Virus record (IMG/VR): IMGVR_UViG_3300045988_150395
Coordinates: 26,614-90,613 of that record
Source of the DNA: a virus
Length of the DNA: 64,000 bases
Reading direction: 5' to 3' (one strand)
Part shown: positions 39,748-54,862 of the stretch, piece by piece
Numbering within the stretch: the first letter of the stretch is position 1
Layout: each line of letters begins with the position of its first letter
Made by a program: the position numbers and the translations under genes
The notes under the pieces: model-generated
The model's database searches: none
Seen by the model: only the letters and a program-made list of their open reading frames with translations
What the model was told of the DNA's origin: nothing

Positions 39748-39986
39748 AACTTAGCCACCTTTCTATAATTATTGAAATTTATAGAAAGACAATTTCGTAC
39801 CCTTACCCAATCATATTCTACCATTAAATTACACCCGCAAATACAAGACTCATGTCAGGAATATTTATAATAAAAACCAAAAGAAAAGAGAAGTTAAAAA
39901 TTGTAAAAGTAATATATTAGTAAAATTCTGCTGTCTATGAGTCTTTACTTATATAAAGTATAACATATTTAATTTTAAAAATCAAA

Positions 39987-40074
39987 CGGAGCGTAGAGGA
40001 TTCGAACCTCTGTGCCGCTTGAGGCGACGCTCGATTAGCAATCGAGTGCAATTAGCCAACTCTGCCAACGCTCC
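39987..40074 (-). tRNA. tRNA-Ser(GCT)
   Basis: Acceptor GGAGCGT/ACGCTCC, anticodon stem CTCGA/TCGAG, loop TTGCTAA, long variable arm, T-arm GAGGTTCGAATCCTC; no CCA. Confidence 0.8.
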
Positions 40075-40091
40075 ATATACAAGATACATTT

Positions 40092-40163
40092 AACACAAGA
40101 TGGGATTTGAACCCATGCTCTCAGATTTTCAGTCTAATGTCTTAACCGCTTGACAACTTGTAT
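40092..40163 (-). tRNA. tRNA-Phe(GAA)
   Basis: Acceptor ATACAAG/CTTGTGT (one G-U pair), loop CTGAAAA, T-arm ATGGGTTCAAATCCCAT. Confidence 0.75.
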
Positions 40164-40185
40164 AATTTGCTGTATGTATCTTTAG

Positions 40186-40275
40186 CGGCGGGGGTGGGAT
40201 TCGAACCCACGGACCGCTCATCGCGGTCGGAGGTTTTCAAGACCTCTGCACTCAACCAGGCTATGCGACCCCGCC
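40186..40275 (-). tRNA. tRNA-Ser(TGA)
   Basis: Acceptor GGCGGGG/CCCCGCC, loop CTTGAAA, long variable arm, T-arm GTGGGTTCGAATCCCAC. Confidence 0.8.
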
Positions 40276-40300
40276 GAATGGGGAATTTCTTCCCCTTTAT

Positions 40301-40639
40301 TTATGCATTTTTCATAATATCATCAATAGCATCTGCGGTTATACGTACTTCTTTTTCCGCATCTGTAACATACTTATTCATCTTCATTACTTTTCTCATT
40401 GCTGTATCTACTGCTTTTATAGCTTTTGCCTGCTCTACTTTTGCTCTTTTGGCTCTTTTCTTTGCAATCTTATGGGAACAACGAGCAATAGCTAGGTCCT
40501 CACCAAATGTCTGGTCAAAAGAATCCCTTGGATCACATTTCGACACGCCTTTAACAGTTTTTCCTGCATAGGTAGAAACCGCAATTACCTTATTATCCTT
40601 ACTTCTAAAAATCTTATACTTACTTTTTGGAAAACTCAT
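40301..40639 (-). CDS. hypothetical basic protein
   Basis: 112-aa ORF. Confidence 0.5.
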   Translation of the reverse strand: MSFPKSKYKIFRSKDNKVIAVSTYAGKTVKGVSKCDPRDSFDQTFGEDLAIARCSHKIAKKRAKRAKVEQAKAIKAVDTAMRKVMKMNKYVTDAEKEVRITADAIDDIMKNA

Positions 40640-40672
40640 ATTTTCTTCTCCTTATCTTTAATTTATATATAT

Positions 40673-40701
40673 ATTATATAATTTTTTTATTTAAAAATCA
40701 A
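40673..40701 (-). promoter_or_regulatory. promoter cassette
   Basis: TTGATT-N17-TATAAT on the minus strand. Confidence 0.55.
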
Positions 40702-41552
40702 TAAACATTTTCTTTTTCTGCGTTAATTCGATATGTTTTATTTTCAATTATTCTTAAAATATCAGTTATTCCCTTTTCTTCTTCGTCAGTCCAGCTAGAA
40801 GTTATTTTAATATAATCTCTTAGCTTACTTCCATAAAAAAGACCATATGTTTGTAATAATTTAAGCTGAAATTCTTCACTATCTATATCTTCTATTATTA
40901 TAAAAAATTTAGATTTTTCAGTTCGATAAATTTGTTCAAACTTAAATAATAATCTTAACACTCTAATAAATTCATTATAGTTTTCTTTATCTCCTTGAAT
41001 TAAATCTTTAATATCTATTGAAATTAATCCAACAGAGCAAGGAAAATTTTTAATCAATGAATTTATTTTTAATTTATACTTCAATGAATTTTGAAATTTT
41101 GTTTCAACATCATATTCATTTTTAGTTTCTTTGTCCCTAAATTTGAGCATATTCCTTATATTATCATCATCTACATTTCTTAAAACAAGAAACGCAATAG
41201 GATTTTCTGGAGAATACTCATAATCTTTTGTTATTTCAAGACAAACCCATGTCCATTCAGAATTTATTTTTCTGCGGTAGTAGATTCGCTGTGGCTTATC
41301 ATTTTTATCAAAATTCTTTTTTAATGAGTGAATATTCATAAATTTAATAAAATTTATTTTATCTTCTGGATAAATGTCATCATTTATGGCATATTCCATT
41401 ATCCAGCGAGTTAAACTATAATACTGTGAATTTTCATCAGAAATAGCTTTAATCACTCTGTAAGAATCATCTGCTAAATTCAATTCTAATATTTTATAGT
41501 ATGAATCTGTTATGTTTTTAAGTGTCCGTTTTATGTCTATATCTGAATTCAT
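40698..41552 (-). CDS. hypothetical protein
   Basis: 284-aa ORF. Confidence 0.55.
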   Translation of the reverse strand: MNSDIDIKRTLKNITDSYYKILELNLADDSYRVIKAISDENSQYYSLTRWIMEYAINDDIYPEDKINFIKFMNIHSLKKNFDKNDKPQRIYYRRKINSEWTWVCLEITKDYEYSPENPIAFLVLRNVDDDNIRNMLKFRDKETKNEYDVETKFQNSLKYKLKINSLIKNFPCSVGLISIDIKDLIQGDKENYNEFIRVLRLLFKFEQIYRTEKSKFFIIIEDIDSEEFQLKLLQTYGLFYGSKLRDYIKITSSWTDEEEKGITDILRIIENKTYRINAEKENVY

Positions 41553-41706
41553 AGGCTTATCCTCCTTTTTTGTTATTATACTAAAAAATTAAATTTTAGT
41601 CAATTTACCTAAAAAAATAGTAAGAGGCATTTTTGATTTTGATTTGCGGACACTTGCAGGCGTTCACCGCCCAGCCAGAGTTGAAATTTTTTACTAATAA
41701 AAAGAA

Positions 41707-41789
41707 TGGGCAGGGTGAGATTCGAACTCACGAAGACCGAAGCCAAGGGTTTTACAGACCCCCTACTTTAACCGCTTGCATACCTACCC
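41707..41789 (-). tRNA. tRNA-Tyr(GTA)
   Basis: Acceptor GGGTAGG/CCTGCCC (one G-U pair), anticodon stem GGGGT/ACCCT, loop CTGTAAA, about 14-nt variable arm, T-arm GTGAGTTCGAATCTCAC; D-arm pairing unclear. Confidence 0.6.
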
Positions 41790-52936: not shown

Positions 52937-52965
52937 ATTATATATTATTTTTTATAAAAAATCAA
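52937..52965 (-). promoter_or_regulatory. promoter cassette
   Basis: TTGATT-N17-TATAAT. Confidence 0.55.
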
Positions 52966-52967
52966 TG

Positions 52968-53309
52968 TTAAGAAAATGACCAGCCATTTCTTTTAATAAC
53001 TCTCATCATGTTTTCTCTTCCAACAGGGTTCATAGAATGAATATGAAATTTAGCATCAATTTTCCATCCTTCTGCTTGCTGTTTTTCTTCAAGCCACTCA
53101 AGAAATCGAATATAGTCCCCGCCAAAAGACCGCATATCTCCAGCATCATGGTCAAGACTTACATCACCAAGATATAAACACATTTTGCCAGAAGAAAAAT
53201 AACTTTCTTCAATACAAGCAACTATTGCCGCAGACACAGTTTTAATCCATGTATATCCTTCTGGAGCTGGTCTTAGATCATCAATCCACAGATTCATCAT
53301 ATTCTTCAT
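52968..53309 (-). CDS. hypothetical protein
   Basis: 113-aa ORF. Confidence 0.5.
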   Translation of the reverse strand: MKNMMNLWIDDLRPAPEGYTWIKTVSAAIVACIEESYFSSGKMCLYLGDVSLDHDAGDMRSFGGDYIRFLEWLEEKQQAEGWKIDAKFHIHSMNPVGRENMMRVIKRNGWSFS

Positions 53310-53553
53310 CCTCTTTCATGACTTCAACAACACCATGTCTAATAAGATAACGTTCCCATTTTTCAGGGTGTCCGGTACTTCCTAATAAAGTATTAATCAT
53401 TTCTGGAGTATATAAACCTAAATCACCAGGAGGATTTTCAGAAAAAATTCTTGCCGCCTCTTTTATTGCAGCTCTGAGCATTCTCACCTTTTTCTCCAAA
53501 TGAAGAATTTGAGTATATAAAACTTTTCCCTTAGTTTCAGTTAAATCACTCAT
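53281..53553 (-). CDS. hypothetical protein
   Basis: 90-aa ORF. Confidence 0.45.
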   Translation of the reverse strand: MSDLTETKGKVLYTQILHLEKKVRMLRAAIKEAARIFSENPPGDLGLYTPEMINTLLGSTGHPEKWERYLIRHGVVEVMKEDEEYDESVD

Positions 53554-53627
53554 TTTTATTTATCCTCTCTTAACTTTCTATAAATATTATATTATAATTT
53601 TTATAGAAAATCAATTAAGGATAAAAG

Positions 53628-54176
53628 CTACTTTTCTTTCCATTGATGGCGTCTTTGAGATTTCCAATTTCGCTCTCTAACACGATACCAGTCATCCCAC
53701 CATCCATCTGGATAATCATTTCTACTGCCGTGATTAAATTCTTTAAATTCAGGATTAGAATACATTACCGCAATATGTTTAATCTTTCGGGGACGTGCAT
53801 ATGGACCGCCGCGCCTTTTCCTAATGCCCTCTACTGGTTCTCTGCGGAATTCACCACGATAAGTTTTATTTTTCTTCCATTTCTTCAACGTTTGTTCAAC
53901 GGTTTCCGGTGGAAGATTTTTATATTTTTCTACCCAAAGCAAATGTGCAGAATTATAATAAATATGAGGATCAATTTGACGACCATATCCATCATAATAC
54001 TGATTTTCCATACGTTTATTTTCTAAAAATCCCCAAGAATCTCTATAAAAACCTTTAGCTAAATACATAATAAGTTCTTTTTCATTTTTTGCTATACATT
54101 CAATAGTTAATCTAAAGGTTAGTTTATTGAAACCATAGCAATAAATCTCATCTTTGGGTTTTTCAACAATATACAT
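53628..54176 (-). CDS. hypothetical protein
   Basis: 182-aa ORF. Confidence 0.5.
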   Translation of the reverse strand: MYIVEKPKDEIYCYGFNKLTFRLTIECIAKNEKELIMYLAKGFYRDSWGFLENKRMENQYYDGYGRQIDPHIYYNSAHLLWVEKYKNLPPETVEQTLKKWKKNKTYRGEFRREPVEGIRKRRGGPYARPRKIKHIAVMYSNPEFKEFNHGSRNDYPDGWWDDWYRVRERNWKSQRRHQWKEK

Positions 54177-54194
54177 AGTAATCTCCTTTTTAAA

Positions 54195-54395
54195 TTAAAT
54201 TATTGGATAACTAAGTATACCTTCATTCGTTACTTCATACACATCTAAAATTTTAAGAATATTTGGATACATTTCTTTAACAAGCTGAATTGCTTTATCT
54301 GCATCTGTGGTTAAAACAGTCGTACACTTTGCATATGCTTTTAATCCTTTCTCATCAAAGTCAAAAATAACTCTAAAAACTTTCATATTTATCAA
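54195..54395 (-). CDS. hypothetical protein
   Basis: 66-aa ORF. Confidence 0.4.
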   Translation of the reverse strand: MINMKVFRVIFDFDEKGLKAYAKCTTVLTTDADKAIQLVKEMYPNILKILDVYEVTNEGILSYPII

Positions 54396-54402
54396 CCTCC
54401 AA

Positions 54403-54524
54403 TGCCCAGAGAAGGACTTGAACCTTCACTCTAATAATAGAAACAGATTTACGTCGCTAAATTGCAGTATAAGTATTTTACAAAACTTTTTAGCTTCTGC
54501 CGCGTCTACTTCCGCCATCTGGGC
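54403..54524 (-). ncRNA. tRNA-like RNA with a roughly 40-nt helix inserted in the anticodon-loop region
   Basis: Perfect acceptor GCCCAGA/TCTGGGC, D-arm GCG-GAAGTAGA-CGC, perfect T-arm GAAGGTTCAAGTCCTTC, stem GCAGA...TCTGT enclosing 47 nt with an internal GCTAAA...TTTAGC helix. Confidence 0.5.
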
Positions 54525-54785
54525 TTAATGATTATTTGGTTGCCGACCAGGTTATCACCCTAGAAGTTTATGGACCTCCTCTTGGTGTATAAAAGCCATA
54601 CTCGTGGGCATTTTTAATTTCCTCTTATCTTTTTGTCCTTTTATACGCTTCCAAACCAAGCCAGGATTTACTTGCTTTACAGAAAACATTACTTTTCCAA
54701 CCCTTGTAACAAAGTCACTAACGCTCTTTTAAACACTCGAATAGGCTTCACCTATTATATTTATAGCTAGCATATCACTATAAAA

Positions 54786-54862
54786 TCCGGATTCTGGGAT
54801 TCGAACCCAGGACAAACACTGCTTATAAGGCAGCCGCTCTAACCTGACTGAGCTAAACCCGG
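54786..54862 (-). tRNA. tRNA-Ile(TAT), unusual anticodon
   Basis: Acceptor CCGGGTT/AATCCGG, D-arm GCTC-AGTCAGGTTA-GAGC, anticodon stem GCTGC/GCAGT, loop CTTATAA, T-arm CTGGGTTCGAATCCCAG. Confidence 0.65.

Follow-up and report, generated by a model that had tools for sequence, protein, structure and literature searches.

How is a phage tRNA to be understood when its gene is interrupted, inside the anticodon loop, by what looks like a second and smaller tRNA? The question is raised by a 64,000-nucleotide (nt) stretch of viral DNA, positions 26,614 to 90,613 of IMG/VR record IMGVR_UViG_3300045988_150395, which we analyzed as a whole and refer to as the window. It holds a tRNA island with a GOLLD-like RNA and interspersed genes for a sigma factor, a cREC (cyclic-phosphate-processing receiver) protein and homing-type endonucleases, and within this island a tRNA-Asn gene is interrupted by a 65-nt unit that is itself tRNA-like. 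In bacteria and phages, to our knowledge, interruptions of tRNA genes have been attributed solely to group I introns. We tentatively suggest that phages may carry a new class of tRNA intron: a miniature (sometimes complete) tRNA set in the anticodon loop of another, which would be excised by RNase P and RNase Z, the flanking halves then being joined by a ligase. The nested units described here are at least a new variant of interrupted tRNA gene, and would be a new intron class if they are spliced.

The interrupted tRNA-Asn gene

Apart from an interruption at position 35/36, the tRNA-Asn gene is normal in its acceptor stem (U1-A72, discriminator G73), D-arm and T-arm. Taking out the 65 nt leaves a 73-nt cloverleaf with the anticodon loop CUGUUAA, that of tRNA-Asn(GUU), and the same exon–exon junction is found as an ordinary uninterrupted tRNA in 40 viral contigs. 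The removed unit has an acceptor stem of its own (GCGGAAG/CUUCCGA), a D-arm, a stub for the anticodon arm, a T-arm (UUAAG-UGCAAGU-CUUAU) and a discriminator U. Searched alone, it matches Rfam model RF00005 with 26.9 bits (E 2.6e-4) over model positions 1-71, a match that takes in the whole insert with the anticodon arm shortened. The gathering score of RF00005 is 29 bits; the Asn insert and the tRNA-Gln insert considered below fall just short of it and the insert of a third contig, L044, lies above it, and we term these units tRNA-like.

The interrupted gene is the sole tRNA-Asn gene of the window. In L002 (UViG_3300013901_000011), a 93% relative, the orthologous insert differs by five substitutions and one indel, and its stems are kept; C-G becomes U-G at the closing pair, and CUCCAUUGGUAG becomes CUUCAUUUUGAAG in the inner hairpin. 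At the junction, the anticodon stem and the CGGAAG/CUUCCG helix are separated by a 5x5 internal loop. No bulge-helix-bulge, in which a 4-bp helix lies between two 3-nt bulges, is present there, and the Intron_gpI model gave no match at E up to 1 within 36000-56000.

Nested units in other phages

Further cases were found by scanning for two T-loops 24-36 nt apart, an approach independent of insert sequence, and then running ARAGORN in intron mode. For 14 independent inserts from unrelated contigs, a script recorded which bases of the loop flank the inner unit on its two sides. When the segment from inner +1 to N73 or N76 is removed, what remains in 12 of the 14 is a loop of exactly 7 nt that has U33 and a sensible anticodon; the outer tRNAs in these 12 are Asn-GUU (four), Ile-UAU (three), and Gln-UUG, Glu-UUC, Leu-UAA, Arg-UCU and Lys-UUU (one each). 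The base preceding inner +1 is U in all but one of the 14. The inserts measure 41-80 nt, lie at positions 32/33 to 36/37 and end in A, U or C, not G. That the nested tRNA-like unit is a real and recurrent sequence feature is beyond reasonable doubt.

At one extreme the inner units are complete tRNAs (Phe-GAA in L268, Ile-GAU in L223), which default ARAGORN calls as tRNA, and at the other they are acceptor/T-arm minihelices of 41-46 nt. A tRNA-Arg(UCU) of L268 (IMGVR_UViG_3300018430_000106, at about 5000-5160) is interrupted at 34/35 by a complete tRNA-Phe(GAA), after which comes CCC. The tRNA-Gln insert of L002, searched alone, matches RF00005 with 27.4 bits (E 1.7e-4) from its first base to one base short of its last, with the anticodon arm deleted. 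The insert of L044, an unrelated 201-kb contig, matches with 35.6 bits (E 1e-6) over 70 of 73 nt; three extra bases stand before its inner +1, and the match stops at the discriminator, after which comes CCA. Once the inner unit and this CCA are taken away, the L044 gene becomes a 76-nt sequence that ARAGORN calls tRNA-Ile(UAU).

The 3' edge of the insert tracks the phage's own tRNA style. All eight inserts in outer tRNAs that encode CCA have a 3-nt tail (CCA in six), and the window, L002 and L303, where CCA is not encoded, have inserts without a tail. Encoded CCA is found in 21 of the 23 tRNAs of L044 and in 17 of 18 in L089.

Default ARAGORN missed every one of the interrupted genes. A relaxed insert pattern run against viral contigs returned only chance matches outside tRNAs, and distant searches with the interrupted genes retrieved just ordinary tRNAs in cultured phages. 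A literature search for interrupted, nested or tRNA-like introns in phage tRNAs found only group I introns and archaeal/eukaryotic splicing; it left subscription journals largely uncovered, and an earlier description is possible.

A possible route of excision and ligation

The acceptor/T-arm module is what RNase P and RNase Z recognize, and their products carry a 5'-phosphate and a 3'-OH. The inserts have their edges at the mature ends of the inner unit, and we propose excision by these two enzymes. They would cut the inner unit out of the tRNA-Asn precursor, leaving the outer 5' half with a 3'-OH and the outer 3' half with a 5'-phosphate—ends that an ATP-dependent RNA ligase could join without prior healing. 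The phage ligase described below, with its tRNA-binding-type OB domain, would then seal the halves into a normal tRNA-Asn(GUU), and such ligation of a split tRNA would be a second use of the phage's heal-and-seal kit. From the anatomy of these genes, we consider excision by RNase P and RNase Z followed by ligation by the phage ligase a serious possibility, held somewhat short of an even chance.

The tRNA-Gln locus

The public contig nearest to the window, L001 (IMG/VR UViG_3300044856_000229), is a distinct sequence from a sister strain; its sigma factor is 100% identical to that of the window and its GOLLD region 96.8%, and its Gln locus is different. The tRNA-Gln gene of this lineage occurs in three states: intact; interrupted by 57 nt; and, in the window, cut short at C32, with an HNH gene plus a foreign tRNA-Gln in its place. 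L001 has an intact tRNA-Gln where that of L002, tRNA-Gln(UUG), is interrupted at exactly 34/35 by a 57-nt insert related to the Asn insert. Two other contigs, L019 and L035, have flanks, exons and the downstream GOLLD in common, and the 57 nt are their only difference. In the window, homology to L001 (99.7%) breaks off exactly after C32 of tRNA-Gln. Beyond this breakpoint lies the HNH gene with its own ribosome-binding site (RBS), its stop codon abutting a different, intact tRNA-Gln that is joined to the GOLLD-like RNA and is foreign in sequence relative to the Gln gene of the sister strains. The coding site of the anticodon loop is thus a rearrangement hot spot at the DNA level. Since the HNH gene sits at the same breakpoint, the arrangement suggests that this site is an endonuclease target that an insert would disrupt.

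The Gln exon–exon junction occurs as an uninterrupted tRNA in more than 120 viral contigs, and the insert in four IMG/VR contigs and 15 metagenome contigs; the insert pattern had 0 matches in 185,579 reference genomes. The insert is invariant bar its last two bases, the exons vary with pairing kept (including a GC-to-AU double change in the T-stem), and the flanks vary freely.

RNA-repair genes and other proteins

An earlier note on this DNA, made without database searches, had described a dedicated RNA-repair and tRNA-maturation gene set next to the island. These genes in fact occupy 19709-29790, 7-17 kb beyond the low-coordinate end of the array (tRNA-Cys, 36673), where they are promoter-distal to it on the minus strand. 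The note's Rnl2-like ligase with a Trbp111-type domain is indeed an RNA ligase: because of a full-length match to PHROG 968 ("RNA ligase") and invariant motifs I, III, IV and V (K187MHGTS, E289, E410GVV and K426-H-K428 in 14 homologs), its sequence identifies it as an ATP-dependent RNA ligase in which the OB domain is N-terminal. To call it "Rnl2-like" would be too specific, as an N-terminal OB domain followed by a nucleotidyltransferase (NTase) domain is the layout of Rnl5 (DraRnl/NgrRnl). The probable start lies two codons inside the open reading frame (ORF), giving 460 amino acids (aa), and PF09414 falls just below threshold. The N-terminal 140 residues have sub-threshold matches to PF21189 (PHA02142 OB-fold, E 3.6e-4) and PF01588 (tRNA_bind/Trbp111, E 4.4e-3), the latter hinting at the Trbp111 identity without establishing it. 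Against TIGR02306 (DraRnl) the ligase scores 40.5 bits (cutoff 151, E 1.5e-10) over residues 12-199, in its N-terminal half; weak similarities link its N domain to that of the Naegleria RNA ligase NgrRnl (E 0.3) and the protein to T4 Rnl2 chains (E 0.03, and about 0.05 in a profile search of solved structures).

The Pnk-like kinase and separate phosphoesterases of the earlier note were recovered as well, the kinase through AAA_33 (67.5 bits) and PHROG 505 (polynucleotide kinase, E 4e-18), with 26.5 bits against TIGR04075 (cutoff 750), and the phosphoesterases as three metallophosphoesterases (Table 1). For the nucleotidyltransferase, the Pol-beta fold stands and the proposed role in CCA addition is not supported, PF01743 being hit neither by the NTase nor by its 24 homologs. 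The protein itself has no Pfam match, PF10127 included, and none to PF01743 at E up to 10. Among the 25 family members, 12 match Polbeta, 11 NTP_transf_2, nine RlaP PF10127 (best E 8.5e-6) and none PF01743, and a GS...DxD signature is invariant. The enzyme looks RlaP-like rather than CCA-adding, and a host enzyme is the likelier source of CCA.

The whole repertoire (RNA ligase, Pnk, phosphoesterase, RlaP, cREC, TROVE) has already been described for large phages, in which healing and sealing against anticodon nucleases is its standard reading (PMC7824862). By analogy, the kinase, phosphoesterases, cREC protein, ligase and RlaP-like NTase would form a repair kit against anticodon nucleases here too, which we think fairly probable. 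The 13-kb locus of L268 also encodes a 70%-identical ligase, RlaP and a cREC protein. Such co-occurrence of the ligase with nested tRNAs amounts to anecdotal cases, in loci that are short and unevenly selected.

Two proteins are encoded immediately upstream of the ligase gene, at 25045-26706 (minus strand): an exonuclease of the DEDDh/RNase T type and, with 187 bits to TIGR02452, a microbial PARG-like protein; these neighbors may link ADP-ribose or NAD-centered chemistry to RNA repair. The TROVE/Ro-like protein that abuts tRNA-Cys contains DUF2828 and a vWA-like DUF7788 (139 and 96 bits, above cutoffs). TROVE homologs are encoded near odd or nested tRNA-like genes in L089, L262, L039 and L088. 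Very weak matches to the Y RNA-like YrlA, far below the gathering score, occur on the minus strand at 44422-44532 (E 0.06) and 50879-50987 (E 0.007), the one beside tRNA-Arg and the other over tRNA-Lys.

The GOLLD-like RNA

The ORF-free block at 47243-48075 is very probably a GOLLD-like RNA, judged by its similarity to Rfam RF02032, and would add a divergent member to this kind. A permissive Rfam search aligned its 3' domain to the whole model (1-416, E 2e-26; 105.9 bits for L002), including the pseudoknot, GCAA-capped hairpins, the motifs GCAAAAGU and CUCGCAAGG and the terminal UAAUCUCAGCCU. The block, 5' half included, is kept at 90-97% in L002 and about 18 other contigs and has no minus-strand ORF of at least 50 aa, which gives an RNA of about 833 nt whose 5' domain is distinct. 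RNAalifold predicted 127 pairs from 13 orthologs (one of them only 72% identical), 17 of which show compensatory double changes, in helices matching the Rfam structure. GOLLD RNAs are known to have a separate, variable 5' domain, to reach at least about 800 nt and to be borne by phages beside tRNAs (PMC12286853), and their place within tRNA arrays that have an HNH gene and tRNA-Ile(UAU) is known as well (PMC6582537). Assembly into a 14-mer nanocage is a further hallmark of GOLLD.

The RNA begins one base past the discriminator of tRNA-Gln, and a 10-bp hairpin stands at its end before tRNA-Thr. Because tRNAs flank it on both sides, it may be released by tRNA processing: the trimming cuts of RNase P and RNase Z would free it. 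In the sister strains (L002 12440-12500, L001 12680-12735), a minihelix of about 55 nt, tRNA-like and armless, lies directly 5' of the GOLLD-like RNA; it consists of an acceptor stem and the T-arm GAGGGUUCGAUUCCCUC, and substitutes there for tRNA-Gln. The 5' end of the GOLLD-like RNA is therefore always marked by an element of tRNA shape, and its constant pairing with a tRNA, often an interrupted tRNA-Gln, is a defined processing context.

The tRNA array

ARAGORN called 24 tRNA genes in the whole window, all on the minus strand between 36673 and 54862. RF00005 gave 25 matches at or above its gathering score (32.7-63.2 bits, model positions 1-71 in all), comprising these 24 and, as the 25th, the 138-nt interrupted tRNA at 48963-49100. 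That this is a tRNA island of a phage without encoded CCA is as near to certain as anything reported here. The tRNAs listed by eye in the earlier note agree one for one with the 24 ARAGORN genes, and its structural remarks were accurate. When the genes are printed with their flanks, none has CCA after the discriminator; A1xC72 occurs in tRNA-Ile(GAU) and tRNA-Met(CAU) and U1xC72 in tRNA-Gln; T-stems of 3 bp are found in tRNA-Arg(ACG), tRNA-Glu(CUC), tRNA-Glu(UUC) and tRNA-Lys; and tRNA-His has its G-1, opposite C73. Its figure of about 19 amino acids has to be lowered to 18, of which 17 come from intact genes and Asn from the interrupted one, and its range of 39985-54862 holds for the array except tRNA-Cys, which lies outside it. 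The GOLLD-like RNA, the interrupted tRNA-Asn with its insert, the orphan tRNA-Gln exon with the HNH gene after it and the cREC gene do not figure in that note. Neither ARAGORN nor Rfam found Gly or Val tRNAs in the window. We likewise agree that the isoacceptors suit an AT-rich codon usage: 47 ORFs strongly favor A/U-ending codons, with a third-position GC content (GC3) of 0.19, and the encoded anticodons read 76% of sense codons under strict wobble, a figure that concerns phage ORFs only.

The first base of the trailer is U in 17 of the 25 tRNAs. In Bacillota, RNase P trims the 5' end and RNase Z the 3' end of CCA-less precursors with U-rich trailers, after which the host CCA-adding enzyme acts.

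Two further tRNA-like elements lie in the array. One, at 44132-44202 (minus strand), has the anticodon CAU, good anticodon and T arms and only about four acceptor pairs; it was called by neither ARAGORN nor Rfam and is 97% identical to L002 8005-8077, which occupies the slot of the window's tRNA-Met. The other is a 122-nt RNA at 54403-54524 (minus strand; also L002 4983-5106) in which a D-arm and a canonical T-arm accompany an acceptor stem of 7 bp, and whose center of about 70 nt shows no conservation as an anticodon arm (fold z = -3.1). Rfam gave no match to it, and RNAs of about 110-125 nt that resemble it occur in L039/L088, L057/L076, L172, L184 and L194.

Among candidate promoter signals, the hexamer CTTGTA, which recurs upstream of several tRNAs, is not enriched (22 matches, 21.8 expected), and sigma-70-like sites overall number 11 against 15.1 expected by chance. 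A module of TTGATT, 17 nt and TATAAT (10 of 12 matches) stands in three minus-strand copies, at 50583-50611, 49345-49373 and 48921-48949, which precede the sigma gene, tRNA-Ala/Asn and the Gln/HNH segment. BLAST found a copy of the module region, about 70 nt long, at 53545-53617 and at L002 15672-15745.

Table 1. Features of the window, in window coordinates
Feature	Position	Strand	Basis or remark
Homing-type endonuclease ORFs	2826-3722, 3862-4653, 10374-11084, 39178-39747, 48147-48593	-	GIY-YIG or HNH
Metallophosphoesterase	19709-20287	-	PHROG 547; ORF overlaps kinase ORF by 38 nt
P-loop polynucleotide-kinase-like protein	20250-20777	-	AAA_33 E 2e-18; PHROG 505
Lambda-phosphatase-like metallophosphoesterase	21116-21796	-	PHROG 246
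ATP-dependent RNA ligase, OB and NTase domains	23641-25029	-	PHROG 968, E 1e-64
Metallophosphoesterase	28236-28994	-	Pfam/PHROG searches
Pol-beta-fold nucleotidyltransferase, RlaP-like	28987-29790	-	PHROG 388
TROVE/Ro-like RNA-binding protein, abuts tRNA-Cys	35047-36672	-	PHROG 850, E 4e-130
tRNA-Cys(GCA)	36673-36743	-	ARAGORN; Rfam 48.7 bits
GIY-YIG endonuclease at island edge	39178-39747	-	Pfam
tRNA-Ser(GCU)	39986-40075	-	ARAGORN; Rfam 55.3 bits
tRNA-Phe(GAA)	40092-40163	-	ARAGORN; Rfam 59.5 bits
tRNA-Ser(UGA)	40185-40275	-	ARAGORN; Rfam 52.7 bits
tRNA-Tyr(GUA)	41706-41790	-	ARAGORN; Rfam 48.4 bits
tRNA-Ile(GAU), A1xC72	43285-43358	-	ARAGORN; Rfam 47.3 bits
tRNA-Arg(ACG), 3-bp T-stem	43728-43803	-	ARAGORN; Rfam 44.3 bits
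tRNA-Arg(UCU)	44348-44420	-	ARAGORN; Rfam 63.2 bits
tRNA-Glu(CUC)	44687-44761	-	ARAGORN; Rfam 44.8 bits
tRNA-Glu(UUC)	45041-45115	-	ARAGORN; Rfam 44.4 bits
tRNA-Leu(CAA)	45968-46051	-	ARAGORN; Rfam 51.9 bits
tRNA-Leu(UAG)	46187-46266	-	ARAGORN; Rfam 53.6 bits
tRNA-Leu(UAA)	46271-46357	-	ARAGORN; Rfam 56 bits
tRNA-Pro(UGG)	46781-46851	-	ARAGORN; Rfam 46.1 bits
tRNA-Thr(UGU), directly 3' of GOLLD-like RNA	47121-47202	-	ARAGORN; Rfam 48.5 bits
10-bp hairpin and U-run between GOLLD-like RNA and tRNA-Thr	47208-47231	-	Conserved in L002
Probable GOLLD-like large non-coding RNA, about 833 nt	47243-48075	-	Conserved ORF-free block
Probable GOLLD-like RNA, 3' domain	47243-47702	-	Rfam RF02032, 99.6 bits
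tRNA-Gln(UUG), intact, U1xC72	48075-48146	-	ARAGORN; Rfam 58.6 bits
HNH endonuclease gene, 148 aa from ATG 48593, RBS AAAGGAGA	48147-48593	-	Pfam HNH
Orphan 5' exon of the lineage's own tRNA-Gln(UUG)	48678-48708	-	Ends exactly at C32 of anticodon loop
tRNA-Asn(GUU) exon 2, U36...G73	48963-49000	-	Rfam alignment and parse
65-nt tRNA-like unit nested in tRNA-Asn anticodon loop	49001-49065	-	RF00005 alone 26.9 bits
tRNA-Asn(GUU) exon 1, U1...U35	49066-49100	-	Rfam 46.8 bits for 48963-49100
tRNA-Ala(UGC)	49169-49243	-	ARAGORN; Rfam 60.4 bits
Sigma-70 family factor inside island	49641-50549	-	Pfam regions 1.2, 2, 3, 4
tRNA-Lys(UUU)	50860-50936	-	ARAGORN; Rfam 53.3 bits
tRNA-His(GUG), encoded G-1 and C73	51007-51080	-	ARAGORN; Rfam 51.9 bits
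tRNA-Asp(GUC)	51289-51360	-	ARAGORN; Rfam 52.3 bits
tRNA-Tyr(GUA), second copy, weakest call	51884-51967	-	ARAGORN; Rfam 32.7 bits
tRNA-Trp(CCA)	52275-52347	-	ARAGORN; Rfam 48.9 bits
tRNA-Met(CAU), A1xC72	52581-52652	-	ARAGORN; Rfam 58.2 bits
cREC protein inside island	52968-53309	-	PF20274 66.9 bits, cutoff 27
tRNA-Ile(UAU)	54786-54862	-	ARAGORN; Rfam 62.6 bits

The phage and its relatives

Near-identical copies of the ligase protein number more than 100, on contigs that reach 184 kb, and human-gut metagenomes are the source of most insert-bearing contigs. The closest cultured ligases, at 46-48% identity, belong to Bacillus phages of 160-170 kb; the phages with the closest ligases are PBC2, Thrax1, Kirov and vB_BcoS-136. 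Because copies of the ligase lie on gut contigs of up to 184 kb and Bacillus-phage ligases are the closest, we infer that the window belongs to a common phage of the human gut whose genome measures about 180 kb and whose host is probably a member of the Bacillota. A near-identity search of GenBank phages with the island gave no match.

Homing-type endonucleases (GIY-YIG or HNH) account for at least five ORFs of the 64 kb, all on the minus strand, and their number suggests heavy mobile-element traffic. A GyrB/ParE-like topoisomerase subunit is apparently split (9798-12820, minus strand) into a 517-aa N-terminal ORF (11267-12820) and a 140-aa C-terminal piece (9798-10220), with one of the GIY-YIG ORFs (10374-11084) between the two on the same strand; the interruption is either an intron or a split gene, and no group I model was matched in this region at the Rfam gathering score. 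An 825-aa protein (30744-33221, minus strand) is 39-41% identical over its full length to proteins of LR756500, LR756501 and LR756503, "huge phage" records of 462 kb and 735 kb. In L003, a more distant relative on a 180-kb contig, a transfer-messenger RNA (tmRNA) and a tRNA with anticodon CUA lie at 208-509 and 1900-1988, and L194 has at 3289-3409 a tRNA-like gene that contains an internal insert and, where an anticodon would be, UUA; the CUA tRNA and this gene may be suppressor tRNAs, a hint of stop-codon recoding in related phages.

Discussion

Several observations weigh against the idea that the nested units are spliced. The proposal of excision and ligation is drawn from anatomy only, and insertion of a mature tRNA-like sequence at the DNA level would give the same exact boundaries, whether or not the insert is removed. 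Isolated inserts fold no better than shuffled sequences (z -0.5 to +0.3). The boundaries themselves are not uniform: the Gln-type insert has one extra nt after the inner discriminator, leaving an 8-nt loop if cut at N73, L223 breaks the boundary rule entirely, and L262 and L290 carry 3-nt tails though their outer tRNAs have no CCA. The invariance of the Gln insert is partly set by the search pattern and may also mean recent spread, and the interrupted copy of tRNA-Gln may be dispensable, because in some genomes (L194) an intact second tRNA-Gln stands beside it. Characterized Rnl5-type ligases favor nicks in duplexes, and sealing in an anticodon loop is a prediction here; the AlphaFold model of the ligase, built from a shallow alignment, has a pLDDT of 48 and is too poor to use. 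The GOLLD match, for its part, lies below the Rfam gathering score of 150.

How far do other explanations account for the same observations? On the model of the earlier note, the island only supplements AT-rich translation, the enzymes only repair cut tRNAs and add CCA, and the interrupted tRNA is irrelevant. The repertoire is that of large phages (PMC7824862), the enzymes are present, and A/U-rich codon usage with a fitting anticodon set agrees with this model; however, the NTase is without the CCA-enzyme signature, no anticodon nuclease or host is known, and the nested units, their exact boundaries and their recurrence in unrelated phages are left unexplained. We regard it as rather unlikely. 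The inserts could also be selfish or accidental DNA, such as tRNA fragments from endonuclease-induced repair or retro-copied mature tRNAs; they would disable the tRNA genes, which persist as tolerated pseudogenes, and would never be removed from the RNA. It would be hard to reconcile with such an origin that the same design appears in at least 14 independent inserts and seven tRNA species, that inner units are reduced to just the acceptor/T-arm module that trimming enzymes recognize, that the stems of the Asn insert survive substitutions and the outer exons keep their pairing (the T-stem double change included), and that the window has no tRNA-Asn besides the interrupted one. The existence of alleles with and without the insert at one locus, an HNH gene located at this very breakpoint, a second intact tRNA-Gln in some genomes, a Gln insert as invariant as recent spread would make it, and CCA-ending inserts that resemble copies of mature tRNAs are all in its favor, and yet on the whole we think this origin unlikely.

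It is also conceivable that RNase P and RNase Z excise the unit and the halves are not rejoined, the product being a small tRNA-like RNA (for instance a Y-RNA-like TROVE partner or a decoy) or tRNA halves. The TROVE/Ro-like protein beside the island, the TROVE homologs near nested or odd tRNA-like genes in the four contigs named above, and the inner unit of L268, a complete tRNA-Phe and clearly a product of its own, would all suit this outcome, which we nonetheless judge improbable: it leaves unexplained why removal of the unit restores, for 12 of 14 inserts, a loop of exactly 7 nt and a proper anticodon, though insertion history alone would yield that too. Conventional introns, whether group I self-splicing or archaeal-type bulge-helix-bulge, were rejected on insert size (41-80 nt, where a group I intron with its P3-P9 core takes up about 200 nt or more), on the lack of a group I match at E up to 1 within 36000-56000, on the terminal base (A, U or C, and U in the Asn insert, where a G would be expected) and on junctions at 32/33 to 36/37 that have no bulge-helix-bulge. 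Bacterial tRNA introns do lie in the anticodon loop, including position 35/36 of tRNA-Asn, after a 5' exon that ends in U (PMC13011429), and even so we give this alternative almost no weight. The explanation that we prefer combines the island, the splicing of nested units, the repair kit and the rearrangement hot spot, and for this combination as a whole we see the chances as evenly balanced.

The island and the repair genes are new members of already known kinds. The inserts are of interest since they are too small for ribozymes and turn up repeatedly, across seven tRNA species and phages unrelated to one another, with edges at the positions where RNase P and RNase Z would cleave. If they are spliced as proposed, phage RNA ligases would gain an endogenous substrate and a housekeeping role beyond the repair of nuclease damage, and protein-dependent tRNA splicing would exist in a bacterial system. 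Phage tRNA annotation would then be missing genes systematically, and homing endonucleases would contend for the anticodon-loop site as well.

Comparison with known systems

Processing by the tRNA-trimming enzymes RNase P and RNase Z is familiar from MALAT1 mascRNA and from mitochondrial tRNA punctuation, where an embedded tRNA-shaped element is cut at +1 and past the discriminator. The phage element differs in that it sits in the anticodon loop of another tRNA, and its flanks, to be useful, would need to be re-ligated. With T4 Pnkp and Rnl1 and the heal-and-seal set of jumbo phages (PMC7824862), the window shares the same enzyme families in one genome together with many tRNAs; it departs from them in its separate kinase and phosphoesterase proteins and its N-terminal-OB ligase, and it adds a candidate endogenous substrate, a split tRNA that would need no healing. 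The GOLLD tRNA arrays of phages and mycobacteria (PMC6582537; PMC12286853) are alike in their dense tRNAs, a GOLLD flanked by tRNAs on both sides, an HNH gene, tRNA-Ile(UAU) and a phage context. The window differs from them in the score of its GOLLD match (99.6 bits, against a gathering score of 150) and in its interrupted tRNA and orphan exon, which are absent from the descriptions of those arrays (PMC6582537; PMC12286853).

Among introns proper, the group I introns at 35/36 of tRNA-Asn in Patescibacteria (PMC13011429) share the position, a 5' exon ending in U and the existence of intron-less alleles, whereas the phage inserts are 41-80 nt long and tRNA-shaped, with no ribozyme core and no terminal G. 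The archaeal and eukaryotic introns that are spliced by proteins, with a Trl1-type ligase, kinase and phosphodiesterase (PMC3400036; PMC4090602), resemble the route proposed here in that two protein-made cuts are followed by ligation, and the phage ligase, kinase and phosphoesterase are analogous to the three modules of Trl1. In those systems, however, the cuts leave a cyclic phosphate and a 5'-OH, in contrast to the 3'-OH and 5'-phosphate predicted for the phage, which has neither a bulge-helix-bulge nor a homolog of the splicing endonuclease.

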